Assembly: GCA_963677895.2 (NCBI GenBank)
Contig: CAXXGJ010000032.1
Coordinates: 1 to 12,091 of the forward strand
Reading direction: 5' to 3'
Length of the DNA stretch: 12,091 nucleotides
Source of the DNA: Treponemataceae bacterium
GTDB taxonomy: Bacteria > Spirochaetota > Spirochaetia > Treponematales > Rectinemataceae
The notes under the pieces were generated by a model. It worked only from the letters and a program-made list of their open reading frames with translations, did no database searches and had not been told where the DNA came from. Shown in pieces: positions 1 through 12,091 of this stretch; the first letter of the stretch is position 1, and the number at the start of each line of letters is the position of its first letter. The position numbers were made by a program, and so were the translations under genes.

Positions 1-700
1 CGACCGGGACAGGGCCTCTGAAGCAATGCGTGCTGAAATCGCCAGGCCTCAGTTTTTTTCCAACGAGATCCCAGTAGGGCCGTTCCTTCCTGAAATAGCC
101 GAAATCCACCATTATGGGCAATCCCGATTTTTCTCCAGCCTGGAGAGCGGAATCCACAGACAGCCAATCGGGTTTCCAGTAATGGGCGCTTTTAATGCCC
201 ACAACGATATCGCTATGTTCTTTAGCCATCGCAGAAGTCCTCGATGGATCGAACACCGATGATTCCTGCTCCATCGCATCGCTTACCATGCCATGGCCGG
301 CGATGTTGATGAAAGAAAACACCCTGGTCTTTGCCCGATCAATCACGGTAGTCCTGAATTGTCCGAAATTCTTCGCGCCCGCCGATCCCGCATCGACCAT
401 GGTCGTTACGCCGGTTCTGAAGCTGAAACAATCGGGATAGATGCTGTTGTCGCCTGCCCATGCGTCGGGCACATTAGCCGACGCGAAAAGATGAGTGTGT
501 ATATCTATGAGACCCGGAGTCACTATACAGCCATGGACATCGATTACCTCCGCATTCTTCGATGCGTGGATATTCGGGGCGACGCCGACAATCCTGGTTC
601 CGTCGAGCGCCAGATCCATCATGGCATCAATCTTGTTTGCTGGGTCCAGTACTCTTCCGCCCTTAAGCAATAAGGAACAGGCAATCTCATTTGTATCCAT
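1..700 (-). CDS. Amidohydrolase/deacetylase-family metallohydrolase (COG3964, Atu3266/EF0837-like; often mis-annotated dihydroorotase), 5' part; runs off the left edge
   Basis: Manual translation from ATG at 700 (minus): MDTNEIACSLLLKGGRVLDPANKID...VTPGLIDIHTHLF...FRTGVTTMVDAGSAG...VVGIKSAH...PIMVDFGYF...LRPGDFSTHCFRGPVPV, open to the edge. Shows PGLIDxHxH (H68/H70), GVTTxVDAGSAG, a candidate carboxylated Lys (K170) and PGDxxTH (H225). AGGAG RBS at 712-708. Not in the ORF track because its stop is outside the window. Confidence 0.9.
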   Translation of the reverse strand, partial: MDTNEIACSLLLKGGRVLDPANKIDAMMDLALDGTRIVGVAPNIHASKNAEVIDVHGCIVTPGLIDIHTHLFASANVPDAWAGDNSIYPDCFSFRTGVTTMVDAGSAGAKNFGQFRTTVIDRAKTRVFSFINIAGHGMVSDAMEQESSVFDPSRTSAMAKEHSDIVVGIKSAHYWKPDWLSVDSALQAGEKSGLPIMVDFGYFRKERPYWDLVGKKLRPGDFSTHCFRGPVPV

Positions 701-718
701 ATTGACGCTCCTAGATAC

Positions 719-747
719 AGTGTAGGGCTTCCTTGGCTATTCGTCAA
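719..747 (-). promoter_or_regulatory. Putative sigma70 promoter for the amidohydrolase gene (TTGACG-17-TACACT)
   Basis: On the minus strand -35 TTGACG = 747..742, 17-nt spacer, -10 TACACT = 724..719, just upstream of the AGGAG RBS. Confidence 0.65.
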
Positions 748-771
748 TTATGAAATTGTGTTCCATTTTTG
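748..771. promoter_or_regulatory. Putative KdgR/IclR operator (box 1)
   Basis: TTATGAAATTGTGTTCCATTTTTG: imperfect palindrome resembling the KdgR box (approximately AAATGAAACAnTGTTTCATTT, from memory). 751-771 is 17/21 identical to 7402-7422. Lies between two divergent -35 elements. Confidence 0.7.
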
Positions 772-773
772 AA

Positions 774-801
774 TTGACAGCGGGCTACAATCGATTATAC
801 T
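774..801 (+). promoter_or_regulatory. Putative sigma70 promoter of the ABC operon (TTGACA-16-TATACT)
   Basis: Perfect -35 TTGACA at 774-779, 16-nt spacer, -10 TATACT at 796-801; AGGAGG RBS at 841-846 before ATG 852. Confidence 0.7.
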
Positions 802-851
802 TATGCTCATGTTAATCGTGTGAGCCAAATCGTAAAAGCCAGGAGGCAGAA

Positions 852-2389
852 ATGAAAATTAGGTTTAGGATCCTTGTTGTTGTTGCGCTAGTGATGGCGA
901 CAATGGCAGTTAATGCCACTACAACCTTCAGATACGCCACCATCGCGGAGCCGCCAAGTCTGGATCAGCAGGTATTGACCTCGGATCAAGCGACGACCAT
1001 AGCTCAGCATGTGTTTGAAGGACTCTACACTTTCGATAAGAGCTACGACCCTGTTCCCATGCTTGTGGATAAGGAGAGTATTTCCGCCGACGGTAAAACC
1101 ATAACGCTTACCTTGCGACAGGGCGTGAAATTCCATAACGGCAAAGAGATGACTTCGGCCGATGTGGTTGCGTCACTAAACAGGTGGGGAGTGTATGGCG
1201 TTCGGGGGCCTGTTCTCTTCGCTCATATTGAAAAGGTAGATGCTCCGTCCAAATACTCCGTACGCCTTTTATTTAAGGATGTGTTTGCCCCTTGGAAAAC
1301 CCTTCTCGCCTTCATCAATGGCGGACCGGTTATCTATCCCAAGGAAATCGCCGAGACGGCAACCAAGCAGCCAATCCCAGAAAGCCAGTATATTGGAACA
1401 GGTCCTTACCGCTTCGTGGAGAGGAATCCTGGCCGCTATATCCTGCTGGAAAAATTCGTTGATTATGTCTCAAGAACCGATGCTCCCAATGGATACGGCG
1501 GCAAGAGAGTGGCGCAGTTCGATAGGATTCAGTTCATTCCCGTCAGCGATGTCGGTACGCGCGTCAATGGCGTCAAAGCTGGTGACTATGACTACGCCGA
1601 GCAGATTTCTGGCGATCTCTATGACATGCTGAGCCAAGATTCTTCAGTCGTCACGCTGGTCAACGAAGGCGTGGTAATGCCGTTCATGTTCTTCGACTCA
1701 ACGGAAGGTCCGTTCAAGAACAACTACAAGCTGCGTGTGGCGGTATTGGCCGCTCTCGATACCACGGCGGCATTGCAGGCTGCCGTCGGCCCCAAGAACC
1801 TCTGGTCGGCCAATGGATCCTTCATGCCCAAAGGCACGTCCTGGTATACTACTCTGCCGGCACCGAAGCCTACAGCCGCAAGAATGCCGCCTTGGCCAAA
1901 TCGCTCGCCGCTGAAGCCGGTTACAAGGGAGAGAAGATCACCTTCATGGTCTCTTCCGCCTATAAGATCCATAACGACATCGGCCTGGTCTTCACAAAAC
2001 AGCTGAAAGACGCGGGCTTCAATATCGACCTGCAGATCTACGACTGGGCGACGCTTGTTTCCAAACGCGGCGACGGCAAGCAATGGGATATGTTCTTCAC
2101 GCACCATGGTTTTGTCCCCGATCCTATTCTTTTCAGCTTCATGAGCGATACCTATCCGGGCTGGTGGGCAACCTCCGAGAAGCAGGCTCTGGCGCAGGTG
2201 TTCACCTCGACGCTGGACGAAAAGAAACGACTCGAAGCCTGGACGCAATTCCAGAAACTTATCTATCAACAAGTGCCTGTCATGAAGATTGGCGATGTAT
2301 ACACCTATGATATTTATTCCCCGCGCGTTCAGAATCTCGGAGAATCCCAACTGATTTGGCCGAAGTTCTGGAATGTGAGTTTTAAATAA
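852..2389 (+). pseudogene. ABC transporter substrate-binding protein, family 5 (DppA/OppA/NikA-like), split by a frameshift near 1845-1856 (true pseudogene or sequence error)
   Basis: ORF 852..2006 has a signal peptide and family-5 motifs (EPPSLD, VFEGLYTFD, TLTLRQGVKFHNG, IGTGPYRF) but turns into non-homologous Pro/Arg-rich sequence after ...KGTSWYTT. The frame of ORF 1892..2389 supplies the natural continuation AGTEAYSRKNAALAKSLAAEAGYKGEKI...FWNVSFK. Joined length is about 511-512 aa, typical of the family. Confidence 0.85.
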
Positions 2390-2407
2390 TATCGATTTTT
2401 CCGTGAA

Positions 2408-2446
2408 CTTTACCCTCCGGCTTGCCAAGCGGAGGGTAAAGCTTTT
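2408..2446 (+). terminator. Stem-loop after the SBP gene (partial terminator or mRNA-stabilising hairpin)
   Basis: Perfect 12-bp inverted repeat CTTTACCCTCCG (2408-2419) / CGGAGGGTAAAG (2430-2441), followed by CTTTT, between SBP and the first permease. Confidence 0.7.
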
Positions 2447-2461
2447 AGTGGGGTCCACGCA

Positions 2462-3409
2462 ATGATTAAGTTTATAGCTCGCCGGATAGTAGGGATGATA
2501 CCCTCGCTGATTCTGGTTTCCATCATCGTATTCGGCTTCGTCCATCTCATCCCTGGGGATCCCATACAGATCCTTCTTGGAGATCTTGCCACTCCCGAGC
2601 AGGTGACCGCGATACGGGAGGAAATGGGGCTCGACCGACCTATATGGATTCAGTATGTGAAGTGGGTTGGTGGCGTTGTCACGGGCAATATGGGCGATTC
2701 CATTTTTTTCAGCCAGCCAGTGTTGTCGGTCATTGGAAACAGAGCAGAAACCAGCGTGCTTCTCGCGCTGCTCACCCTTGGCCTTATCCTTGTCATCGGC
2801 ATTCCCGTCGGATATCTATCGGCAACCCGCTACGGAACGAAACTCGATCAGACAATCTCAGGTGTGTCGATGGGATTTGCGTCCATTCCTACCTTTTGGC
2901 TTGGCTTAAGTCTCATGACGCTCTTCGCGGTCAAGCTGAAGTGGTTTCCCAGCTCGGGATTTCCTTCCATACTGAAGACGGGAGATTGGGCGAACATAAG
3001 GTACCTAATTCTTCCCGCCATAACCCTTTCAGCCCCGAATTCGGCCCTCATTATCCGCCTTACCCGCGCTTCAATGCTGGACGTATTCAAAGAGGATTAT
3101 GTCAGGACTGCCCGCGCAAAGGGTCTGCGTGACTCTGCGGTGAACATCCTTCATGTATTCAGGAATTCCATGAATTCCCTGGTTTCCGCGCTGGGCTTTA
3201 CCTTCGCGGGGCTGGTCTCGGGCACTGTGGTGACCGAAACAGTATTTTCGCTGCCGGGAATAGGAAAGCTCGTCGTCGATTCCGTGCTTCGCCGCGATTA
3301 TCCAGTGATACAAGGAGTTATTCTCTGCATCGCGCTGCTGTATATGGCTATCAACCTGCTCGTCGACATCGCGTATGGCTGGCTTGATCCGCGCATCAGG
3401 TACAGTTAA
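2462..3409 (+). CDS. Peptide/nickel ABC transporter permease (DppB/OppB family)
   Basis: 315 aa; LIPGDP, GLDRP, GNMGDS, SIPTFWLGL, EAA-like DYVRTARAKGL, VTETVFSLPGIG, RDYPVIQG, DPRIRY. Confidence 0.95.
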   Translation: MIKFIARRIVGMIPSLILVSIIVFGFVHLIPGDPIQILLGDLATPEQVTAIREEMGLDRPIWIQYVKWVGGVVTGNMGDSIFFSQPVLSVIGNRAETSVLLALLTLGLILVIGIPVGYLSATRYGTKLDQTISGVSMGFASIPTFWLGLSLMTLFAVKLKWFPSSGFPSILKTGDWANIRYLILPAITLSAPNSALIIRLTRASMLDVFKEDYVRTARAKGLRDSAVNILHVFRNSMNSLVSALGFTFAGLVSGTVVTETVFSLPGIGKLVVDSVLRRDYPVIQGVILCIALLYMAINLLVDIAYGWLDPRIRYS

Positions 3410-3419
3410 GGAGGACCGT

Positions 3420-4262
3420 ATGTCTGGTTTTATGAAAATGCTGCGGTCCAGGAAGATAGCGATTGCAGGCATATGCTTTTTATTGCTTCTCGTCTTCATG
3501 GCGCTTTTCGCGTCCTTTATCGCGCCGATCGATCCTATGGAGATCGATCCGGCTAATCGATTGTTGCCGCCGGGGAAAGGGCATATTTTCGGCACGGACA
3601 ATTTTGGACGCGACATCTGGAGCCGCGTGGTATTCGGATCGCGCACGAGCATCGTCAGTTCGCTCGGCGTCGTGCTGTTTTCCGTCACGCTGGGCATCGT
3701 GATAGGGTTGGTCGCGGGATACTTCAAGGCGCTCAACGCGCCTTTTATGCGTATCATCGATGTCATGATGGCATTCCCGTCGCTTCTGCTCGCTCTCGTT
3801 CTGATGACGATTTTCGGGCGGGGATTGGTCAATGTCATTCTGGCGGTCGGTATCACCTATCTCACGAGAACCACGAGGATCGTCTATGGAATGACGCTCA
3901 AGCTCAAGGAGGAAGTGTACATCGAAGCCTTCAGGGCTGCCGGGGCATCCAATATGCGGCTTCTCCTTCATCATATATTCCCGAATTTGACTTCTCCGGT
4001 CATCGTGCAGGCTACCTTCACCTTCGCGTTTTCCCTGCTGGATATGGCATCCCTTGATTTCCTCGGGCTTGGCCTGCCGCCGGAAATACCGAGCTGGGGC
4101 AACATGCTTTCAGAAGGAAGCATCTATCTGGTGAGGGCTCCCTGGATGCTTCTCATTCCGGGGATCTTCATCGTCCTCACCGTGCTTTCTTTCAATCTCG
4201 TCGGCGACGTATTGCGGGACCAAGTGGATCCGCGTTTCCGGCACGATATCAAAGGAGTGTGA
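3420..4262 (+). CDS. Peptide/nickel ABC transporter permease (DppC/OppC family)
   Basis: 280 aa from ATG 3420 (AAGGAGG RBS just upstream; the ORF-track start at 3375 overlaps the previous gene); HIFGTDNFGRDIWSRVVFG, YIEAFRAAGAS, FLGLG, PSWGNML, GDVLRDQVDPR. Confidence 0.95.
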   Translation: MSGFMKMLRSRKIAIAGICFLLLLVFMALFASFIAPIDPMEIDPANRLLPPGKGHIFGTDNFGRDIWSRVVFGSRTSIVSSLGVVLFSVTLGIVIGLVAGYFKALNAPFMRIIDVMMAFPSLLLALVLMTIFGRGLVNVILAVGITYLTRTTRIVYGMTLKLKEEVYIEAFRAAGASNMRLLLHHIFPNLTSPVIVQATFTFAFSLLDMASLDFLGLGLPPEIPSWGNMLSEGSIYLVRAPWMLLIPGIFIVLTVLSFNLVGDVLRDQVDPRFRHDIKGV

Positions 4263-4265
4263 TTC

Positions 4266-5264
4266 ATGCCGGGCGATGTGCTTCTATCGATTCGTGGACT
4301 GAAAACTCATTTTTCCACGCCCGCGGGAATCGTGACCGCCGTGGACGGAGTAAGCTTCGACCTAAAGCGGGGCGAGACGCTGGGATTGGTGGGGGAATCC
4401 GGAAGCGGCAAGACCGTTACGGCTCTTTCCGTGATGCAGCTCTATGCCAAACCGCAGGGAAGAATTGCGGCGGGCGAGATATTGTTCGAGGGCCAGGATA
4501 TTTCGAAGATGAGTGACCGCGAGATGCATAAGATCCGCGGCAATTCCATCTCGATGATATTCCAGGAGCCGATGACCTCGCTCAATCCCGTGTATACTAT
4601 CGGCAAACAAATTGTGGAAGCGATAAGGGCGCACAGAAAAATCAGCAAAAAGGAAGCTTGGGCTATCGCCCTTGAGTCCCTGAAAAAGGTCGGCATCCCC
4701 GATCCGGAAAGGCGCCTCAAGTCCTTTCCTCACGAGATGTCGGGAGGCATGCGCCAGAGGGCGATGATCGCCATGGCCATATCCTGCAATCCAACCTTGC
4801 TTATCGCCGATGAGCCCACGACGGCTCTGGATGTCACGATACAGGCGCAGATACTCCAGCTGATAAGAGAACTGAGGGAAAAGCTTGGAATGTCGGTGCT
4901 CATGATCACGCACGACCTGGGTGTCATCGCGGAGATTACCGATAGAGTCGCGGTGATGTATGCCGGTCGAATCGCGGAATATTCGGATACTGTCTCGCTT
5001 TTCTCCGATCCGATGCATCCCTATACGCGGGGCCTTATGGATTCGATCCCGGATATCGAAAAGGAAACCAAGCAGTTGTATTCGATACCTGGAACGGTAC
5101 CCAGTCTCCTGGGCGAAACCATAGGCTGCCGGTTCGCGAATCGATGCGATTACGCCTCATCGATATGCTCGGAAAAAGCCCCGGACATGGAAGAAGCCGC
5201 TCCAGGGCATTGGGTTGCCTGCTGGAATAGACTAGGAAGGATACATGGAGGAGTACTACGATGA
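4266..5264 (+). CDS. Peptide/nickel ABC transporter ATP-binding protein (DppD/OppD family)
   Basis: 332 aa; Walker A GESGSGKT, Q-loop FQEPMTSLNP, signature MSGGMRQR, Walker B LLIADEPTTALD, H-loop ITHDL, C-terminal Cys cluster GCRFANRC...C...ACW; AAAGGAG RBS. Confidence 0.95.
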   Translation: MPGDVLLSIRGLKTHFSTPAGIVTAVDGVSFDLKRGETLGLVGESGSGKTVTALSVMQLYAKPQGRIAAGEILFEGQDISKMSDREMHKIRGNSISMIFQEPMTSLNPVYTIGKQIVEAIRAHRKISKKEAWAIALESLKKVGIPDPERRLKSFPHEMSGGMRQRAMIAMAISCNPTLLIADEPTTALDVTIQAQILQLIRELREKLGMSVLMITHDLGVIAEITDRVAVMYAGRIAEYSDTVSLFSDPMHPYTRGLMDSIPDIEKETKQLYSIPGTVPSLLGETIGCRFANRCDYASSICSEKAPDMEEAAPGHWVACWNRLGRIHGGVLR

Positions 5265-6223
5265 GCGATTATATCCTCCGCATCGATCAATTGACGAAGG
5301 ACTTCAAGGTACATGGCGGCAACACCAAGCATGGCGTCGTGAAGGCTGTGAGCGATGTCACGTTTTCCGTTTCTCGAGGAGAGACGTTCGGAATCGTGGG
5401 CGAATCGGGATGCGGCAAGTCTACCACCGGTCGCCTTATCATGCGGTTGATAGACCCGACCTCAGGGCGAATCGAGTTCCGCGGCAGCGATATCACGACG
5501 CTCAAGGGCGAAGCCCTGAGGGGAATCCGACGGAAAATACAAATGGTATTCCAGGATCCTTATGCTTCCCTGAATCCACGGCTGAACATAGCCGGCAACA
5601 TCGGAGAGCCTCTGATGATCCATCGGATAGCGTCCTCTACCGCGCAGAGAGACGAAATCGTCAAGGAGCTACTTTCGACCGTAGGGCTCAATCCCGATTA
5701 TTACTCCCGGTATCCCTTCGAATTTTCCGGCGGACAACGGCAGCGCATAGGCATCGCGAGAGCTCTTTCTCTTTCGCCAGAGCTGGTCATAGCCGATGAG
5801 CCTGTCTCGGCGCTGGATGTGTCGCTCCAGGCCCAGATCATCAATCTCCTGCAGGATCTCAAGGCAAAGAAAGACCTAACGTACATTTTCATCGCCCATG
5901 ACCTGGGCGTCGTCAAGCATATTTCCGATCGCGTCGCCGTGATGTATCTGGGCAAGATAGCCGAGATAGCCGATAAACGCGAAATTTTTCTCTCTCCCCT
6001 ACACCCTTATACGAAGGCGCTTTTTTCTTCCATTCCCATACCCAATCCCGCGAAGAAAAAGCTGAGGGCTCCCTTGATGGGCGATATCCCAAGCCCGCTC
6101 GCGCCTCCTCCCGGATGCCTATTCAACACGCGCTGCGCGTACGCGACCGAACGGTGCAGAACCGAGGTTCCCGTCCTCAAGGAGGCTGGTCCCGGCCATA
6201 TGGTGGCCTGTCACCTCTACTGA
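5261..6223 (+). CDS. Peptide/nickel ABC transporter ATP-binding protein (DppF/OppF family)
   Basis: 320 aa; GESGCGKST, FQDPYASLNPR, FSGGQRQR, VIADEPVSALD, IAHDL, PPPGCLFNTRC...C...ACH; GGAGGAG RBS and ATGA overlap with the previous gene. Confidence 0.95.
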   Translation: MSDYILRIDQLTKDFKVHGGNTKHGVVKAVSDVTFSVSRGETFGIVGESGCGKSTTGRLIMRLIDPTSGRIEFRGSDITTLKGEALRGIRRKIQMVFQDPYASLNPRLNIAGNIGEPLMIHRIASSTAQRDEIVKELLSTVGLNPDYYSRYPFEFSGGQRQRIGIARALSLSPELVIADEPVSALDVSLQAQIINLLQDLKAKKDLTYIFIAHDLGVVKHISDRVAVMYLGKIAEIADKREIFLSPLHPYTKALFSSIPIPNPAKKKLRAPLMGDIPSPLAPPPGCLFNTRCAYATERCRTEVPVLKEAGPGHMVACHLY

Positions 6224-7338
6224 ACTGTCTTTAAAAGAGCGCTCACGGCCGCGAACACTTCTTCTTCCTCTCCCTCCAGCAGGGTTTGAGGACTCAGGAC
6301 AAAACCGTCCCTCCAGCTGTCCACTATGACGCTGGGGGTACCGTTTCTCAGCCGCAGCACTTCGGCCGCCACATGGACGCCGGTTTTCCTGACGAATACT
6401 TTAGGTATACAGATCGGATTCATTCCCGGCTGGGTGGCGGTATAGGGGGTAATCTCGACGCCTTCGAGTTCGCCGAATTTCCTGAGCCAGAAGGCGCACT
6501 TTTCTTTCATTCTGTCCATTCTGAGCTTTTCGTCCTCGGCGAGGTAGGCTTCGAGCGCCGCCAAAAATCCCAGGACATTTTCTTTTCCAGCCTTGGCCGG
6601 CCTGCCTACGCCATAGTTGGGAGCGCCATTGTATCGTGCGGCATTCACTAAATCGCGGGATCCAACGACGAGGCCCGAACTCTGCGGTCCACCTATTTCC
6701 TTTCCGCCGGAAAAAATTACCAGATCGGCTCCTCTCTGGCGGAGCGTCCAGAGATTGGACTTGGGCGGCAGCTCGGCGGCGGCGTCGACGACAACGGGAA
6801 CGCCTTTGGCATGCGCTATCCTGACAGTCTCATCGAGCGACAATGACGCGTTCAGCATTTCCGCCTGTAGGGCGAAAAACACCGCGGCCGTTCTTTCCGT
6901 GATGGCCGATTCCAGCTCCCATGGGTGCGTCTTGATGCAATCGCCAATCTCGACGAAAGTAGCGCCGGCGGTGGGCACGGCATTATCGTAGGGATTGCGG
7001 TGGGAACGATGTATGATGACTTCAGACCTGGCGGGAGGGGCGGAAGGGAGCAAGTTCCTTAGATATGGATCTGCGCCGGCGATACATGCGGCAATGGACT
7101 GGATGATGCCGGGAGAAGCTCCGGCCGTTATCAGCGCGGCATCGACACCTAGTAGCTTGGCTATCCTTTCGCCGCTTTTTTTCAACAGCAGCTCCATGTC
7201 GACAAAATTGCCTGAGGCCTCGGCCATCGCCGCCGCCGCTTCGGGGCGGACTCTGCTGCCTCCGAACGACGTCAGTGTCCCTGACGCGTTGATAATCCTC
7301 GGCAAGCCTAACTCGCTGCCGTAATTTATTTCTCTCAT
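6217..7338 (-). CDS. SelA-like PLP-dependent enzyme (DgaE / D-glucosaminate-6-phosphate ammonia-lyase related family); not true selenocysteine synthase
   Basis: 373 aa from ATG 7338 (AAAGGGGG RBS; the ORF-track start at 7377 lacks one). Motifs IINASGTLTSFGGS, VVVDAAAELPP, GADLVIFSGGK (PLP Lys), GGPQSSG, GVGRPAKAGKE. Lacks the N-terminal extension of bona fide SelA. Confidence 0.85.
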   Translation of the reverse strand: MREINYGSELGLPRIINASGTLTSFGGSRVRPEAAAAMAEASGNFVDMELLLKKSGERIAKLLGVDAALITAGASPGIIQSIAACIAGADPYLRNLLPSAPPARSEVIIHRSHRNPYDNAVPTAGATFVEIGDCIKTHPWELESAITERTAAVFFALQAEMLNASLSLDETVRIAHAKGVPVVVDAAAELPPKSNLWTLRQRGADLVIFSGGKEIGGPQSSGLVVGSRDLVNAARYNGAPNYGVGRPAKAGKENVLGFLAALEAYLAEDEKLRMDRMKEKCAFWLRKFGELEGVEITPYTATQPGMNPICIPKVFVRKTGVHVAAEVLRLRNGTPSVIVDSWRDGFVLSPQTLLEGEEEEVFAAVSALLKTVQ

Positions 7339-7355
7339 GATTCCCCCTTTGTGCA

Positions 7356-7384
7356 AGTATCGGATCTTGATCGGCAAAGATCAA
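7356..7384 (-). promoter_or_regulatory. Putative sigma70 promoter for the SelA-like gene (TTGATC-17-GATACT)
   Basis: Minus strand -35 TTGATC = 7384..7379, 17-nt spacer, -10 GATACT = 7361..7356, directly upstream of the RBS and ATG 7338. Confidence 0.5.
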
Positions 7385-7398
7385 TGGCAGTTTGCTAA

Positions 7399-7422
7399 AA
7401 TTGGAATCATGTTTCATTTTTG
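7399..7422. promoter_or_regulatory. Putative KdgR/IclR operator (box 2)
   Basis: AATTGGAATCATGTTTCATTTTTG: has a consensus-like right half-site TGTTTCATTT, is near-identical to box 1, and is centred between divergent -35 elements upstream of the KdgR-like gene. Confidence 0.7.
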
Positions 7423-7432
7423 CATATTATTC

Positions 7433-7466
7433 TTGACATATCGTCGTATTGCGGTGAAACTATAAT
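7433..7466 (+). promoter_or_regulatory. Putative promoter of the iclR-eda-kdgK operon
   Basis: TTGACA at 7433-7438; candidate -10 is GAAACT (7456-7461, 17-nt spacer) or a perfect TATAAT (7461-7466, 22-nt spacer). Confidence 0.5.
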
Positions 7467-7512
7467 CAGAGTGCAATGAAATAGAGAGGAGTATCGTAAA
7501 TCGAAATCAGCC

Positions 7513-8301
7513 ATGACCGCTAAAAAACTATCTGAAAAAGAAAAACCTACCGACAAATCCACCTCCGCCGTAGTGCGCACGATGGCCGTGCTTGAAGCCT
7601 TATCGGAAGGCGGATTCTTTTCATTTGAAACGCTGTCTGAGCGTGTTGGCTTGGCAAAACCCACGCTTTTCAGGTTTCTGAAGACTTTGAAGACGCTCGG
7701 TTATGTATCGCAAAGCGAGGATTCCAAATATTCTCTTAGCTTAAAAATGCTCAATGTGGGCTCGAAAGCCTTGGAATCGATGGATCTCTACGAGGTGTCG
7801 AGAAACGTCATCAAGCGACTGGCGGCTCATTTCAAGGAGACCGTCCATCTCGCGATAATGGTGGACGAAAAAGTCGCCTATATCCAGAAAGTGGAATCCA
7901 AGTATACGATCCGGATGTATTCCACGATAGGAAAACAGGCCCCGCTTTACTGTACTTCACTGGGGAAATCGCTTCTCGCATGGGAACCGAACCAGCAGGA
8001 GATATTAGAACGGATCAACCTTGTGCCCTATACGAAGAACACGATAATCACCAGACAAAATCTTGAGCTTGAACTTGCGAAAACTCGGGAACGAGGATAC
8101 TCGATAGACGATGAGGAACACGAGGCGGACATCCACTGCCTAGGAGCCCCCATTTTCGATTACTCCGGCTCTCCAATCGCCGCCATCAGCGTCGCATGGC
8201 CGATCTTTCGCTACGATGCCGCCAAGGAAGCGCAAAACGCTCTCATCATTATCAAGGCCGCAAACGAGATATCTCACCTTATGGGGAATGAACACCGATG
8301 A
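7513..8301 (+). CDS. kdgR: IclR-family transcriptional regulator, KdgR-like
   Basis: 262 aa; N-terminal wHTH (KPTLFRFLKTLKTLGYVSQ..KYSLSLK), KETVHLA, YIQKVESKYTIRMYSTIG, PLYCTSLGKSLLAW, RGYSIDDEE, CLGAPIFD. By recollection these segments closely parallel E. coli KdgR (FLQTMKTLGYVAQ, KYSLTLK, LRMYSRIG). Context includes kdgK and eda. The symbol is tentative. Confidence 0.85.
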   Translation: MTAKKLSEKEKPTDKSTSAVVRTMAVLEALSEGGFFSFETLSERVGLAKPTLFRFLKTLKTLGYVSQSEDSKYSLSLKMLNVGSKALESMDLYEVSRNVIKRLAAHFKETVHLAIMVDEKVAYIQKVESKYTIRMYSTIGKQAPLYCTSLGKSLLAWEPNQQEILERINLVPYTKNTIITRQNLELELAKTRERGYSIDDEEHEADIHCLGAPIFDYSGSPIAAISVAWPIFRYDAAKEAQNALIIIKAANEISHLMGNEHR

Positions 8302-9401
8302 TGCAATTGAAAAATTCAAAGACCCTGCCTTCGCCGGCTCTGTTGTTCTATGAAGACGCGATTCGGGAGAATTTCGCCGAAGCCGTCAGGATAGCCGGTT
8401 CGCCAAAACGCCTGCGCCCTCATATCAAGACTCACAAGACCGCGGAAATCGTGCGCATCGCCATGGCGTACGGCATAACGAAATTCAAGTGCGCAACCAT
8501 CGCGGAAGCCGAGATGCTCGCCAAAACCGGAGCCCTCGATATTTTCGTCGCCTATACCCTTGTCGGAAGGAATGCTGAACGCCTCATCGAGTTGGCGATA
8601 AAGTATCCCAAGGCTAAATTTTCCGTACTTGTCGATAATATTGAGACGGCAGGGAACCTTGAGAGGCTCGTTTACTCGGCCGGCATCAAAATAGGAGCAT
8701 TTCTCGATCTGGACGTTGGACAGCACCGTACCGGGATCAGCCCCGGACCTGAGGCGCTGGAGCTTTACAGGTTCTTCGCCGCATGTCGTGGATTATATCC
8801 TTCAGGGCTTCACTGCTATGATGGCCACAACCATCAGCATGATTACGGCGAGCGCATGACTGCCGCGAAATACTGCTATAGGCTCATGGAATCGTTTCGT
8901 GTTCAGCTCGTTGGAGCAGGCATGTCCATCCCTGAAGTCGTCATAGGGGGTACGCCCACATTCCCCTGCTACGCGACGATGGAAGGCGTCACGCTTTCGC
9001 CTGGCACCTGTTTCCTCCAAGACTACAACTACGCCTCGAGCTTTCCAGACCTTCGCTTCAAGAATGCCGCCATACTTTTTACGCGGGTCATCAGCAGGAA
9101 TGAAAAGCTCAGGACGTTTACGATCGATCTTGGCTACAAAGGCATTTCTTCCGATCCCCAGGGACTCCGTGGGCTGATCCTCGACCATGAAGGATCTGAG
9201 CCGGTGCTGCAGAACGAAGAGCATTGGGTCTTTACGGCTCCCGGGAAAGGATTACCCGTAATCGGCGAGGAAGTCTATGTCATTCCTACGCACATCTGCC
9301 CGACGGTCGCGCTGTACGAGCGAGCCCATATCATCAATGCCGATGGCGTATGTTACACCGAATGGAAAATCGCCGCGCGGGACAGAAGCATAGGCATCTA
9401 G
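8298..9401 (+). CDS. Fold-type III (alanine-racemase-like) PLP enzyme, D-threonine aldolase / D-serine dehydratase (DSD1) family
   Basis: 367 aa; SPALL, RLRPHIKTHK (PLP Lys), KCATIAEAEML, DLDVGQHRTG, GLHCYDGH, GGTPTF, SPGT, DLGYKGIS, NEEH, PTHICPTV (metal-binding His/Cys). ATGA overlap with the regulator; alternative start at 8301. Confidence 0.9.
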   Translation: MMQLKNSKTLPSPALLFYEDAIRENFAEAVRIAGSPKRLRPHIKTHKTAEIVRIAMAYGITKFKCATIAEAEMLAKTGALDIFVAYTLVGRNAERLIELAIKYPKAKFSVLVDNIETAGNLERLVYSAGIKIGAFLDLDVGQHRTGISPGPEALELYRFFAACRGLYPSGLHCYDGHNHQHDYGERMTAAKYCYRLMESFRVQLVGAGMSIPEVVIGGTPTFPCYATMEGVTLSPGTCFLQDYNYASSFPDLRFKNAAILFTRVISRNEKLRTFTIDLGYKGISSDPQGLRGLILDHEGSEPVLQNEEHWVFTAPGKGLPVIGEEVYVIPTHICPTVALYERAHIINADGVCYTEWKIAARDRSIGI

Positions 9402-9452
9402 CAGATCCAGCCAGTTTTATCGGCATGAATACTTTTCGAAGAGGAGATGTAT

Positions 9453-9911
9453 ATGAGTGCGATTGAAAATCTCAAGAAATTAGGGTATGCGATTCCGGAA
9501 CTGCCGCCGCTGGGCGGTCTTTACATGAGAATGAAGCGAGTCGGCAATTTAGCCTATGTATCCGGTCAAGGCTGCACTGTGAAGGGCGAGCCGGTATTCA
9601 AGGGGAAGCTGGGCGCGAATATCACCCTTGAGCAGGGGCAGGAGGCGGCCAGAATCTGCGTACTCAACGCCTTGGCGGTGCTACAGGATTCGCTCGGATC
9701 GCTCAATAAAGTGAAAAATGTCGTAAAAGTGCTTGGCTTCGTAGCCAGCGTTCCAGGGTTCAATAGCCAGCCGGCGGTCATCAACGGCTGCTCCCAGTTG
9801 CTTATCGATGTATTCGGCGATGCCGGCAGGCATGCTCGCTCCGCTATCGGCACCAACGAGTTGCCGGGCGACATTCCCGTCGAGATCGAATTCATATTTG
9901 AGGTCGAGTGA
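9453..9911 (+). CDS. Rid (RidA/YjgF/UK114) family protein, Rid1-like; probable imine/enamine deaminase
   Basis: 152 aa from ATG 9453 (GAGGAG RBS at 9441-9446); GNLAYVSGQG, GKLG, VKVLGFVAS, QPAVINGCSQLL, GRHARSAIG (catalytic Arg retained), LPGDIPVEIE. Confidence 0.9.
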   Translation: MSAIENLKKLGYAIPELPPLGGLYMRMKRVGNLAYVSGQGCTVKGEPVFKGKLGANITLEQGQEAARICVLNALAVLQDSLGSLNKVKNVVKVLGFVASVPGFNSQPAVINGCSQLLIDVFGDAGRHARSAIGTNELPGDIPVEIEFIFEVE

Positions 9912-9951
9912 GATACAAACGCTTTTTCGCCAACGTTACAGGGGGATTTGA

Positions 9952-10611
9952 ATGGATACCGTATTTGGGGACGATCGGGTTAATGAGTTGAAGGCCAAAG
10001 GCCTCATCGCGGTTATGGTGATCGAAGATGCCGCTGACGCCGTACCTGTGGCGCGAGCCCTGGTCGAGGGAGGCGTCACGGCCATGGAACTGACGCTCCG
10101 CACCCCCTCGGCTATGGATGCGCTGGACCGGATAGTTCGCGAGGTGCCCGAAATGATGGCGGGAGTGGGGACAATCCTTTCGCCGGCGCAAGTGCGAACG
10201 GTGGCGTCATTGAAAGCCGACTTCGGCGTATCGCCTGGACTGAACAGGAGTGTGGTAGAGGAAGCCATAAAAATCGGCTTGCCCTTCGCGCCTGGAGTAT
10301 CCACCGCTTCGGAAATTGAGGCCGGCATTGAGATGGGCTGCCGCGTGCTGAAGTTTTTCCCCGCCGAGAACATGGGCGGGCTGAAGTATCTTGATGCGGT
10401 GAACAATCCCTATGGCTTTCTCGGATTGCAGTATATCCCCTTGGGCGGCCTGAATATGCAGAACCTCGCAAGCTGGCTGGAAAAAGACTATATCCTGGCC
10501 GTCGGAGGTTCATGGATCGCGCCGAAAAACCTCATCAAGCAAAAGGCATGGGGAACCATACGTGAAAATGCCATTCAGGCAATGAAGGTTTTCCACGACG
10601 TGAGAGGATGA
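9952..10611 (+). CDS. eda: 2-keto-3-deoxy-6-phosphogluconate / 4-hydroxy-2-oxoglutarate aldolase (Eda family)
   Basis: 219 aa; ELTLRT (catalytic Glu/Arg), GVGTIL, VSPG, PGVSTASE, LKFFPAE (Schiff-base Lys), PLGG, AVGGSWI. Confidence 0.92.
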   Translation: MDTVFGDDRVNELKAKGLIAVMVIEDAADAVPVARALVEGGVTAMELTLRTPSAMDALDRIVREVPEMMAGVGTILSPAQVRTVASLKADFGVSPGLNRSVVEEAIKIGLPFAPGVSTASEIEAGIEMGCRVLKFFPAENMGGLKYLDAVNNPYGFLGLQYIPLGGLNMQNLASWLEKDYILAVGGSWIAPKNLIKQKAWGTIRENAIQAMKVFHDVRG

Positions 10612-10617
10612 GTGAAG

Positions 10618-11709
10618 ATGAGCGAGTTTGTTACTTTCGGGGAAATAATGGCCAGGATCGATATGCCTGGCAAGAAACGATTCAGGCAAGCTCTGCCCGG
10701 CAACGTCGAGATAAGCTTCGCGGGAGCCGAAGCCAACGTCGCGGCTTTTCTGTCCTATGTAGGCAGAAGCGCCGCTTTCGTCACCGCTCTGCCCAAAAAT
10801 GATATTGCCGAAGCATGCATCGGGATCCTGCGGAATGTCGGAATCGAGACAGGACATATAGTCAGGATGGAAGAGGGACGCCTCGGCACCTATTATGTAG
10901 AGGAAGGGGCGAATCAACGTCCAAGCAAGGTGATCTATGATAGAGGCTGGTCATCCGTGAGCATGGCCTCTTCTGATGCCTACGCGTGGGAGGAAATTTT
11001 TAGCGGCGTGCGCTGGTATCATTTTACGGGCATTACTCCGGCGCTTTCCCGGACTGCCGCGGACACTATGCTCTTTGCGGCGAAAGCGGCGAAGAAAAAA
11101 GGCATCACCGTTTCCTGCGACTTGAATTTCCGGAAGAATCTATGGAAATGGGAAAAGGGAATGGCTTCCAACGAATTGGCTAGCAAGGTTATGAGGGAAG
11201 TCCTGCCCTACGTAGATGTTCTCATCGGCAACGAAGAGGACGCCAGCGACGTGCTTGGCATTAAAGCGGGCGACACGGATGTCACATCGGGTAGGCTGCG
11301 CATACAGAGCTACCCCGAAGTGGCCTCGAAGATAGCGTCCATGTTCCCGAATATAAAAAAGATCGCCTTTACGTTGCGCGAAAGCATCTCGGCGAGTCAT
11401 AACCGATGGGGAGCCATGCTCTATGACACCGTTATGGGGAAGGCGTTTTTCGCTCCGGAATCAGGCGGGAAATATAGTCCCTACGAGATAACCGACATCG
11501 TAGACAGGATTGGCGGCGGCGACTCATTTTCGGCGGCGCTTGTCTATGCGCTATGCACGCCTGAACTGGCGCAGGATGCAGTCGCGGTCCGCTTTGCGGC
11601 AGCCGCAAGCTGTCTGAATCATTCGATCAGGGGCGACTTTAATTACTCCAGCAAGGATGAAATACTCGCCTTGATGAGGGGCGATGCCTCCGGACGCGTC
11701 AAGAGATAA
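10618..11709 (+). CDS. kdgK: PfkB-family sugar kinase, 2-keto-3-deoxygluconate kinase type
   Basis: About 363 aa (ATG 10618; GTG 10612 is an alternative); VTFGEIMAR, FAGAEANVA, RLGTYYVEEGA..RPSKVIYDR, HFTGITPALS, DLNFRKNLW, GNEEDA, PfkB signature IVDRIGGGDSF; adjacent to eda. Confidence 0.9.
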   Translation: MSEFVTFGEIMARIDMPGKKRFRQALPGNVEISFAGAEANVAAFLSYVGRSAAFVTALPKNDIAEACIGILRNVGIETGHIVRMEEGRLGTYYVEEGANQRPSKVIYDRGWSSVSMASSDAYAWEEIFSGVRWYHFTGITPALSRTAADTMLFAAKAAKKKGITVSCDLNFRKNLWKWEKGMASNELASKVMREVLPYVDVLIGNEEDASDVLGIKAGDTDVTSGRLRIQSYPEVASKIASMFPNIKKIAFTLRESISASHNRWGAMLYDTVMGKAFFAPESGGKYSPYEITDIVDRIGGGDSFSAALVYALCTPELAQDAVAVRFAAAASCLNHSIRGDFNYSSKDEILALMRGDASGRVKR

Positions 11710-11743
11710 AGACTAATTGACCATAAAAAGGTTGATTTAGTCT
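11710..11743. terminator. Imperfect hairpin between convergent kdgK and C45 genes; possible bidirectional terminator
   Basis: AGACTAATTGACC (11710-11722) pairs with GGTTGATTTAGTCT (11730-11743) on the plus strand using two G-U pairs and one bulge; it fills the whole intergenic gap. Weak and AT-rich. Confidence 0.35.
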
Positions 11744-12091
11744 GAAATTACAATTTTTTCAAATGTCGAATGGCATGGATTACCTACGGTAAACCAAAGG
11801 CTTTTCGAATCAAGATCTACATAGAAGGAAATTAGCGTTTCCCAGCGAGCCTCAATGGGAGAAGACTCGTCTTGATGTCTGCAAATTGAATTAGGAAATC
11901 CTGCATGGTCTCGCAGCCCTATTTCAATCGCTTCATTCGTCGTTTCTGCTTTACATTGAAGCAGATGTTTTTTAAGTCGTTCCGTCCGGCTGAAGGTATC
12001 AGGTAGGAGAATACATCCGATATCTTTATCATTGTCGCGGAGGAACAGAAAATGATTAGAATGTACTAAGACACCATTTGTAGGGCTAATG
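11737..12091 (-). CDS. C45-family autoproteolytic acyltransferase/hydrolase (Ntn-hydrolase, AAT-like), C-terminal 117 aa; 5' part outside the window
   Basis: Manual minus-strand translation (frame from 12090): ISPTNGVLVHSNHFL...LLPDTFSRTERL...GLRDHAGFPNSICRHQDE...WETLISFYVDLDSKSLWFTVGNPCHSTFEKIVISD*, stop TAA at 11739-11737. HxNHF, DxxxRxxR, L.DH...P.SICRH, T..S...DL and G.PC are characteristic of C45 C-termini. Not in the ORF track. Confidence 0.8.
   Translation of the reverse strand, partial: ISPTNGVLVHSNHFLFLRDNDKDIGCILLPDTFSRTERLKKHLLQCKAETTNEAIEIGLRDHAGFPNSICRHQDESSPIEARWETLISFYVDLDSKSLWFTVGNPCHSTFEKIVISD

Follow-up and report, generated by a model that had tools for sequence, protein, structure and literature searches.

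Two catabolic systems and one biosynthetic enzyme are among the closest described relatives of the gene cluster reported here, which occupies a stretch of 12,091 nucleotides (the window) that is the entire contig C32 (CAXXGJ010000032.1) of a Treponemataceae bacterium genome (G000, GCA_963677895.2; 93% complete). In the Ong route, established by genetics and biochemistry, OngB, OngC, RidA (OngD) and KdgK are each essential for the use of N-acetyl-D-glucosaminate (GlcNAc1A); catabolism begins without phosphorylation, KdgK phosphorylates GlcNAc1A weakly and KdgA is found in some genera (PMC9537276). OngB folds like a D-aminoacylase, and its site is of subtype V, with Cys/His/His (PMC12017989), and OngC also deaminates D-Ser and D-Thr (PMC9537276). 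In the Salmonella dga system, the His162–His163 pair of DgaE is described as strictly conserved, and His163 has been suggested to prevent release of a toxic intermediate (PMC9529869). Cap15 is an O2-, pyridoxal phosphate (PLP)- and phosphate-dependent monooxygenase-decarboxylase that is specific for the 6'R isomer of glycyluridine (PMC6384614, PMC6411801); DgaE and Cap15 both use D-configured beta-hydroxy amino acids (PMC9529869, PMC6384614).

Scans of the window for open reading frames (ORFs) and family profiles identified 12 cluster genes in 4 transcription units, in the order amidohydrolase (minus strand); solute-binding protein (SBP)-oppB-oppC-oppD-oppF (plus); SelA-like gene (minus); and iclR-D-TA-rid-eda-kdgK (plus). 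Adjacent genes of the plus-strand units are separated by -4 to 72 nt. The features are as follows.

2..700, minus strand: COG3964/PRK09237 metallo-amidohydrolase, putative N-deacylase; N-terminal 233 of ~412 amino acids, the rest removed by the contig start
719..747, minus strand: predicted sigma70-type promoter of the amidohydrolase gene, TTGACG-17-TACACT
748..768, no strand: predicted KdgR-type operator 1, flanked by two back-to-back -35 elements
774..801, plus strand: predicted sigma70-type promoter of the ABC operon, TTGACA-16-TATACT, 11/12
852..2389, plus strand: family-5 (peptide/opine) SBP, PF00496 on both ORF pieces (852-2006 and 1892-2389)
2462..3409, plus strand: ABC permease of the OppB/DppB type, from family profiles
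3420..4262, plus strand: ABC permease of the OppC/DppC type; ORF-finder start 3375, ribosome-binding site favours 3420
4266..5264, plus strand: ABC ATPase of the OppD type, from family profiles
5261..6223, plus strand: ABC ATPase of the OppF type, from family profiles
6217..7377, minus strand: SelA/DgaE/Cap15-family fold-I PLP enzyme, likely start 7338; putative phosphate-independent ammonia-lyase or epimerase
7399..7419, no strand: predicted KdgR-type operator 2, in the SelA-like/iclR spacer
7513..8301, plus strand: IclR-family repressor, nearest model KdgR (NF011671, 222 bits)
8298..9401, plus strand: fold-III PLP enzyme of the D-TA family (D-threonine aldolase / D-serine dehydratase-like), PF01168 and PF14031; putative OngC-like deaminase
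9447..9911, plus strand: Rid (YjgF/L-PSP) imine/enamine deaminase, PF14588 and PF01042; likely start 9453
9952..10611, plus strand: KDPG/KHG aldolase Eda, TIGR01182 204 bits, above the 156 cut-off
10612..11709, plus strand: KdgK-like PfkB kinase, likely start 10618; sub-cut-off matches to NF041332 and to NF041633 (kinase part)

From this inventory we infer a pathway, to which we assign a probability of roughly 0.58, for the catabolism of an N-acyl-D-amino-aldonate by import, deacylation, PLP-dependent beta-elimination, ammonia release by Rid and the action of KdgK and Eda, under KdgR-type repression. The peptide-type ABC system would import an unphosphorylated N-acyl-D-2-amino-2-deoxy-aldonate, and the COG3964 metalloenzyme would strip its acyl group. 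The fold-III D-TA enzyme, the SelA-like fold-I enzyme or both would then beta-eliminate water, and Rid would hydrolyse the released enamine or imine to a 2-keto-3-deoxy-aldonate (KDG). KdgK would phosphorylate KDG, Eda would cleave the product to pyruvate and glyceraldehyde-3-P, and KDG or a similar intermediate would serve as the inducer. GlcNAc1A is the lead candidate substrate, which we put at somewhat below even odds; C2, C3 or C4 epimers or other acyl groups are possible. As KDG would be the product from any C2 or C3 epimer of glucosaminate, the second lyase is most plausibly for another stereoisomer: the SelA-like enzyme most likely takes this second stereoisomer, or epimerises C2.

A preliminary description of this DNA had listed a clustered amidohydrolase, ABC importer, SelA-like and fold-III enzymes, Rid, KdgK, Eda and KdgR-like regulator that share an operator, and the scans confirm each of these genes. 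It had also called the pathway independent of the phosphotransferase system (PTS); this holds for the cluster, which is without PTS genes, but the organism is not PTS-less, as its genome has enzyme I.

The cluster has the appearance of two fused parts, a deacylase/lyase/import module and a KdgR-eda-kdgK block. We argue that such a fusion would be functional because a KdgR box precedes the importer and the deacylase, with rid and the D-TA gene co-operonic with eda and kdgK; because the deacylase and SelA-like pair joins KDG or KDG-phosphate genes in three settings (the window, all three of loci L140–L142 and Klebsiella locus L111); because the same SBP subfamily occurs elsewhere with D-aminoacylase and fold-III or D-serine-dehydratase-domain genes; and because D-TA homologues elsewhere are paired with Rid and with hydrolases of deacylase type.

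Each divergent spacer holds one palindrome (pattern matches at 751 and 7402). Against the published KdgR consensus (PMC5559549), the sites score 15/20 (748-768) and 16/20 (7399-7419); only 22 sites in the 3.51-Mb genome reach 15/20, corresponding to ~0.08 expected per 12 kb. KdgR-type boxes recur at both spacers in 5/5 related loci, at 16/20 each, where they form conserved blocks beside conserved -35 elements, and both hexamers of the amidohydrolase promoter fall in columns conserved across 7 aligned spacers. A matrix trained on the ten sites of the relatives ranks operator 2 first and operator 1 second genome-wide, a ranking that is partly circular in that the training sites were picked with a pattern drawn from the window. 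Within the window alone, the significance of the palindrome is weak (16/200 shuffles gave at least 2 matches at one mismatch), and totals from promoter and terminator scans of the window were at chance (10 versus 9.5 and 11 versus 11.9, respectively). A generic repeat search was discarded as a source of operators, having returned only ABC ATPase paralogy and chance pairs and no operator family. The KdgR profile NF011671 is the best model for the IclR protein, at a score below its cut-off of 275. The conserved boxes thus bear out the shared operator and the single regulon of the preliminary description, and suggest that one IclR/KdgR-type repressor governs the four transcription units from the two divergent spacers. 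The same palindrome also matches at C25:126364, in a separate kduI/kdgK/gluconokinase/IclR locus of this genome (L012; C25 ~120-130 kb) that is probably a uronate/gluconate KDG regulon.

A scan of species genomes found 5 related loci, the closest labelled Spirochaetaceae/Treponema; these are kin rather than independent cases. The preliminary description had made its proposal depend on the amidohydrolase/ABC unit being conserved alongside kdgK-eda, and in 4/5 of the loci the whole stretch between kdgK and the amidohydrolase gene is present with its gene order unchanged, the fifth being interrupted by contig ends. The distribution of the cluster is patchy. At E 1e-60, the amidohydrolase was found in 4/301 genomes of the order—the source genome and 3/8 of one other genus—and in 0/2 other genomes of the source genus. 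At E 1e-40, the SelA-like gene was found in 5/400 genomes of the phylum, adjoining a COG3964 gene in 5/5. The window contig has a GC content of ~0.527, compared with 0.54-0.59 for most large contigs of the genome; the low GC content and the absence of the cluster from the two same-genus genomes make recent acquisition or mis-binning of the contig possible.

The pair also joins KDG genes beyond these relatives. Wider regions around three of these five SelA-like genes (L140:4980-15500, L141:83-10015 and L142:1971-12068) each carry COG3964, SelA-like, kdgK, eda and Rid genes together with those for a solute:sodium symporter (SSS), a D-lactate dehydrogenase and an IlvD/EDD dehydratase; L141 (1/3) adds a galactonate dehydratase. 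Their SelA-like proteins form a clade separate from that of the window with 100/100 support, in a 16-row tree with weak deep branches. The D-lactate dehydrogenase might reflect a substrate with a lactyl group, derived from muramate, or simply the disposal of pyruvate. In Klebsiella L111, an EF_0837-type locus, a COG3964 and DgaE-family pair occurs with a 'KDGP aldolase' and a lactonase.

Coverage beyond the phylum came from plasmid records and metagenome loci. An operon of importer, COG3964, Rid, IclR and SelA-like genes is present in Aminobacter (L024), Martelella (L155) and Paracoccus (L156), and Rhizobium (L023, L026 and L154) has a split version with the hydrolase elsewhere. This combination is not unusual, and is the common alphaproteobacterial arrangement. 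In Martelella (L155:20597-23446) and Paracoccus (L156:7986-10479), the module adjoins genes for four-carbon acid sugar kinases, accompanied by PdxA or a RuBisCO-like protein, and this may be a hint that amino-sugar acids of four carbons are involved. In Azospirillum (L157), the same SBP subfamily occurs with a D-aminoacylase, a fold-III enzyme, RidA and IclR, and in L083 with a D-aminoacylase and a D-serine-dehydratase-domain protein; this swap of the enzyme pair beside one SBP subfamily points to N-acyl-D-amino acid chemistry. The Azospirillum fold-III gene (L157:16608-17665) is annotated as two pieces, both of which match the D-TA query. In spirochaetes, loci L029–L031, L127 and L129 place the hydrolase, Rid, D-TA and importer genes (and the SelA-like gene where the contig reaches) under a YheO-PAS regulator, and the KdgR box is absent from loci with this regulator type. 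Skermanella, Pantoea, Haladaptatus and Natronosalvus loci, with COG3964 or SelA-like genes in other contexts, and the unannotated Niallia and Brevibacillus records were uninformative; in Brevibacillus the amidohydrolase and SelA-like genes lie 2.6 kb apart with no kdgK or eda match. Locus L017 is labelled Anaerolinea, but those of its proteins that were compared are 85-95% identical to the set of spirochaete L007, and it is likely to be a mis-binned contig or a transfer. Matches in the ESM Atlas had generic names only.

The amidohydrolase fragment matches NF006689 (E 1e-62, 212 bits), and a full-length relative with 77% identity exceeds the cut-off of that model (384 versus 371 bits). No second copy of the gene was found in the source assembly. 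Its best match in the PDB is 2OGJ from Agrobacterium, the gene of which is Atu3266. The fragment has HxH at 68/70, Lys170 and His225. Of the residues that we take to be the ligands of the binuclear metal site in 2OGJ (HxH, Lys, His, His and Asp), this subgroup retains HxH, Lys, the His of THCF and the Asp of STD. MVDFG replaces the MVHxG of 2OGJ, a change from His to Asp, and this Asp is common to the L140–L142 and Granulicella hydrolases. The Agrobacterium enzyme is said, from work by Ornelas in 2013, to act best on acetyl-(R)-mandelate and weakly on N-acetyl-D-Ser/Thr. The identity of 2OGJ as a dihydroorotase has been doubted, and PDB 8JE0, another COG3964 relative, carries the label amidase. 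We ruled out that the amidohydrolase is an OngB, as its top structure matches are COG3964 proteins and not the subtype V fold. D-aminoacylases match its N-terminal 60 residues only; PpOngB is not among its 44 structure matches, nor does it appear at E 1e-15 when the full-length relative is compared.

The SelA-like protein has the fold, PLP lysine and Asp of the SelA/DgaE/Cap15 fold-I family. In an alignment of 100 rows (94 of 150 listed representatives and 6 locus proteins), the PLP lysine Lys226 (SGxK) is invariant and Asp198 (DAA) is present in 98; the predicted structure (predicted local distance difference test score of 96) has template-modelling (TM) scores of 0.84 to Cap15 and 0.79 to DgaE. 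The subfamily comprises 781 clusters (50% identity) at E 1e-30. The enzyme is homologous to DgaE (146 bits) but does not qualify as a DgaE, to which the preliminary description likened it: it scores 211 bits against TIGR01437 (cut-off 385) and 171 bits against the DgaE equivalog NF047797 (cut-off 600), and its fold is as near to Cap15, an enzyme that the preliminary description did not take into account. His162-His163 is missing (LQA-EML in the window protein versus KSHHCV in DgaE), with HH in 1/100 subfamily rows; the missing His163 would fit a need for Rid. The phosphate-site arginines 301, 332 and 346 of DgaE correspond to Lys326, Asp353 and Gln364, in a comparison based on alignment through L111 and the profile rather than on structural superposition. 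The loss of R332 (to D) and R346 (to Q) and the change of R301 to K fit an unphosphorylated substrate. Lys262 and Lys265 align with the conserved GRPxKxxKE motif of the family. A second SelA-like gene in the same genome, of 31% identity (L011:8819-12909; C18 ~378.8-382.9 kb), has Rid, a regulator of the GntR type and an ABC system for polar amino acids as neighbours, but no COG3964 gene. Three representatives of the subfamily, P0145, P0148 and P0252, are long (1468, 762 and 671 amino acids, respectively) and may be fusions with partner enzymes.

The fold-III enzyme has its PDB matches in 7DIB, 4V15 and 3ANU, among which D-threonine aldolases reach 118 and 111 bits and D-serine dehydratase 77 bits; Lys44 and the metal ligands His332 and Cys334 are invariant in 9/9 aligned homologues, and the nearest named relatives, at 38-42% identity, belong to the 'D-TA family'. 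D-TA loci of Bacteroidota include Rid and an M19 dipeptidase in 3/3, one with a gluconate symporter, and those of spirochaetes include a COG3964, M19 or M20 hydrolase in 5/14 and Rid in 6/14. The Rid protein of the window has the RSA motif.

The SBP gene reads as two overlapping ORFs owing to 2 additional bases near 1852, a split that the preliminary description overlooked. It is intact, encoding one protein of 509 amino acids, in 5/5 relatives. Among four sequencing runs compared with the window, contigs of X1 and X2 are without the 2 bases and X3 and X4 have no depth at the site; contig depth is ~3, and X1 may be the source of the window itself, whereas X2 comes from another study. The frameshift is probably an assembly error, because the X2 contig from a separate study lacks the bases and the relatives are intact, and we judge a true pseudogene unlikely on the same grounds. 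The SBP matches PDB 8VDX and AgaA (6HLX), and is 37-40% identical to the Azospirillum L157 and L083 proteins compared with 22-30% for paralogues in its own genome. In L028 (30-1556), the usual place of COG3964, upstream of the SBP gene, is taken by a gene for an M81/MlrC metallopeptidase, with an operator-like box retained at 1649.

Several observations weigh against the proposed pathway. In the loci viewed, neither kdgK, eda nor a D-TA gene lies beside the alphaproteobacterial module; kdgK and eda are missing from the YheO-type spirochaete loci within the DNA in view, from 14/14 D-TA loci and from three loci of the same family whose SelA-like and hydrolase genes are more distant, and in G512 and G572 an iclR-kdgK-eda block lies on other contigs. 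A metagenome survey anchored on the SBP yielded 80 loci, many of them short. In the 10 with an SBP match of at least 50%, the hydrolase was found in 4, SelA-like in 3, D-TA in 5 and Rid in 3, with kdgK or eda in 0/10 (5/10 of these loci are at least 8 kb, and two end at or before selA). The remaining 70 include the amidohydrolase in only 2 and a SelA-like gene in 1. The Azospirillum acylase scores higher as an N-acyl-D-glutamate deacylase (288 bits) than as OngB (224 bits), and has Thr at the position of OngB Ser292. Two lyases exceed the need of a single substrate. Finally, among the 5 carrier genomes (incomplete metagenome-assembled genomes), we found no lytic polysaccharide monooxygenase (LPMO; 0/5) and the glycoside hydrolase GH20 in 1/5, and GH18 was not found in the source genome (0/1); there would thus be no in-house source of GlcNAc1A, and the substrate would be scavenged.

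Part of this evidence fits two neighbouring systems under one regulator. The importer, deacylase, PLP enzymes and Rid would scavenge short N-acyl-D-amino acids or D-residue peptides (N-acyl-D-Ser, D-Thr or 4-hydroxythreonine) to pyruvate or glycine, and iclR-eda-kdgK would be a separate, inserted KDG unit. The module does stand alone under the YheO-PAS regulator, the regulator, aldolase and kinase genes form stand-alone blocks in G572 and G512, the D-aminoacylase partner is not OngB-like, the module meets four-carbon acid sugar kinases in Martelella and Paracoccus, and the activity of OngC extends to D-Ser and D-Thr. Nevertheless, we consider this explanation unlikely: the D-TA gene, rid, eda and kdgK form one compact operon (gaps of -4 to 51 nt), a KdgR box that YheO-type loci lack has been gained before the importer and the deacylase, and a second spirochaete clade ties the same pair to kdgK and eda. 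We regard as quite improbable a scheme in which the hydrolase is an amidase acting on an aldonamide or an N-aldonoyl amino acid, the freed aldonate passes to KDG through a dehydratase and the role of the SelA-like enzyme is to break down the amino-acid part or, in the manner of Cap15, to form the amide by oxidative decarboxylation. Cap15, which makes an amide from a beta-hydroxy-D-amino acid, is the top fold match, 8JE0 bears its amidase label, and L140–L142 combine the pair with dehydratases and D-lactate dehydrogenase; however, neither the window cluster nor its 5 close relatives include an aldonate dehydratase (the single IlvD/EDD match of the source genome lies elsewhere), Cap15 requires O2 and phosphate whereas the window protein is without the phosphate-site arginines, and the hosts are, from their lineage, probably anaerobes.

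Other alternatives reassign one of the PLP enzymes. The fold-III enzyme might be a genuine aldolase of the D-threonine type, with glycine and an aldose as its products from the deacylated amino-aldonate, which would leave only the SelA-like enzyme to feed KdgK and Eda. This would account for the presence of two PLP enzymes and agrees with the lead of D-threonine aldolases among the PDB matches, but Rid serves eliminations and not aldol cleavage, and its gene follows the D-TA gene in all three Bacteroidota loci and in 6 of the 14 spirochaete loci; we think this very unlikely. The chances appear slimmer still for a Salmonella-like route, in which the amino-aldonate is first phosphorylated by the kinase and its 6-phosphate is then deaminated by the SelA-like enzyme, acting as DgaE does, to 2-keto-3-deoxy-6-phosphogluconate (KDPG). 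Its homology to DgaE and the weak activity of the Ong KdgK on GlcNAc1A speak for such a route; the absent His pair, the arginines 332 and 346 that are not retained and a score far below the equivalog cut-off speak against it.

Returning to the import, deacylation and elimination pathway, its interest lies in enzymes that are widespread and poorly assigned. COG3964 amidohydrolases and most SelA-related PLP enzymes await the assignment of a natural substrate, although rhizobia, enterobacteria, acidobacteria and spirochaetes all have them as a recurrent pair. Because KdgK, Eda and a KdgR box accompany the pair here, the product can be narrowed to a 2-keto-3-deoxy sugar acid, and the substrate to a short panel that can be assayed. 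If the pathway is correct, amino-sugar-acid catabolism is not confined to Gammaproteobacteria with an LPMO, and new annotations could be given to hundreds of genes now wrongly labelled 'dihydroorotase' or 'selenocysteine synthase'. As a tentative extension, to which we give only about half the weight of the pathway itself, COG3964 may be a second, independently evolved family of N-acyl-amino-aldonate deacylases, and the SelA subfamily without the His-His pair and the arginines may be a new amino-aldonate lyase or C2-epimerase, independent of phosphate, through which amino-sugar acids of both the gluco and the manno type could be channelled into KDG. The locus would then reveal which class of substrate the orphan loci of alphaproteobacteria and of the EF_0837 type use, and anaerobes would scavenge the oxidised amino sugars of others.

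Downstream of kdgK and convergent with it, the window ends in a C-terminal fragment of a C45 autoproteolytic acyltransferase/hydrolase gene (11737-12090, minus strand) that is cut by the contig end. We rejected it as a member of the cluster, as the related loci have no C45 match.

A literature search, with most subscription journals outside its reach, found no published account of the window gene combination or of the alphaproteobacterial locus tags. A D-glucosaminate route fed by an ABC importer may exist in Pseudomonas; the GapMind paper does not mention glucosaminate. With the Ong system of Pseudoalteromonas prydzensis (OngIT, OngB, OngC, OngD/RidA and KdgK; PMC9537276, PMC12017989), the cluster shares the inferred order of deacylation, deamination of an unphosphorylated substrate, KdgK and aldolase, as well as a fold-III PLP enzyme with Rid and a local repressor. 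It differs in having a COG3964 hydrolase in place of the D-aminoacylase-like subtype V OngB, a fold-III enzyme of the D-TA subfamily with an additional SelA-like enzyme, a family-5 ABC importer rather than an SSS transporter and an IclR/KdgR rather than an RpiR regulator, and is without OngA, a TonB receptor or an LPMO. In common with Salmonella dga (DgaABCD PTS, DgaE and DgaF; PMC9529869), it places a SelA-family fold-I PLP enzyme ahead of KDPG aldol cleavage, but it has no PTS, no His162/163 or arginine triad, and it adds a deacylase, KdgK, Rid and an Eda-type aldolase. Cap15 of capuramycin biosynthesis (PDB 8T7J) offers the nearest solved fold and a D-configured beta-hydroxy amino acid substrate; unlike the window protein, it is biosynthetic, depends on O2 and phosphate and has arginines at all three DgaE positions.

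The alphaproteobacterial COG3964 loci (2OGJ type) share the SBP subfamily, OppBC, COG3964 hydrolase, Rid, IclR and SelA-like enzyme with the window, whereas they have no adjacent kdgK, eda or D-TA gene, their hydrolase retains MVHxG and the aligned Aminobacter and Rhizobium SelA-like proteins retain the His-His pair. The EF_0837-type cluster of enterobacteria and enterococci (Klebsiella L111) likewise sets a COG3964 hydrolase, a DgaE-family enzyme and a KDPG-type aldolase side by side, but with DUF4310/4311/4312 and PRD transport and regulation, a lactonase and neither KdgK nor Rid. The preliminary description had proposed chemistry equivalent to that of Ong and Dga: the same functional set supports the Ong-like part, the identity with DgaE fails and the substrate stays inferred. 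The cluster is Ong-like in logic, yet by its defining enzymes it is not a member of Ong or Dga. Its overall chemistry is already known from these two systems, and the novelty lies in the parts list rather than in the principle.

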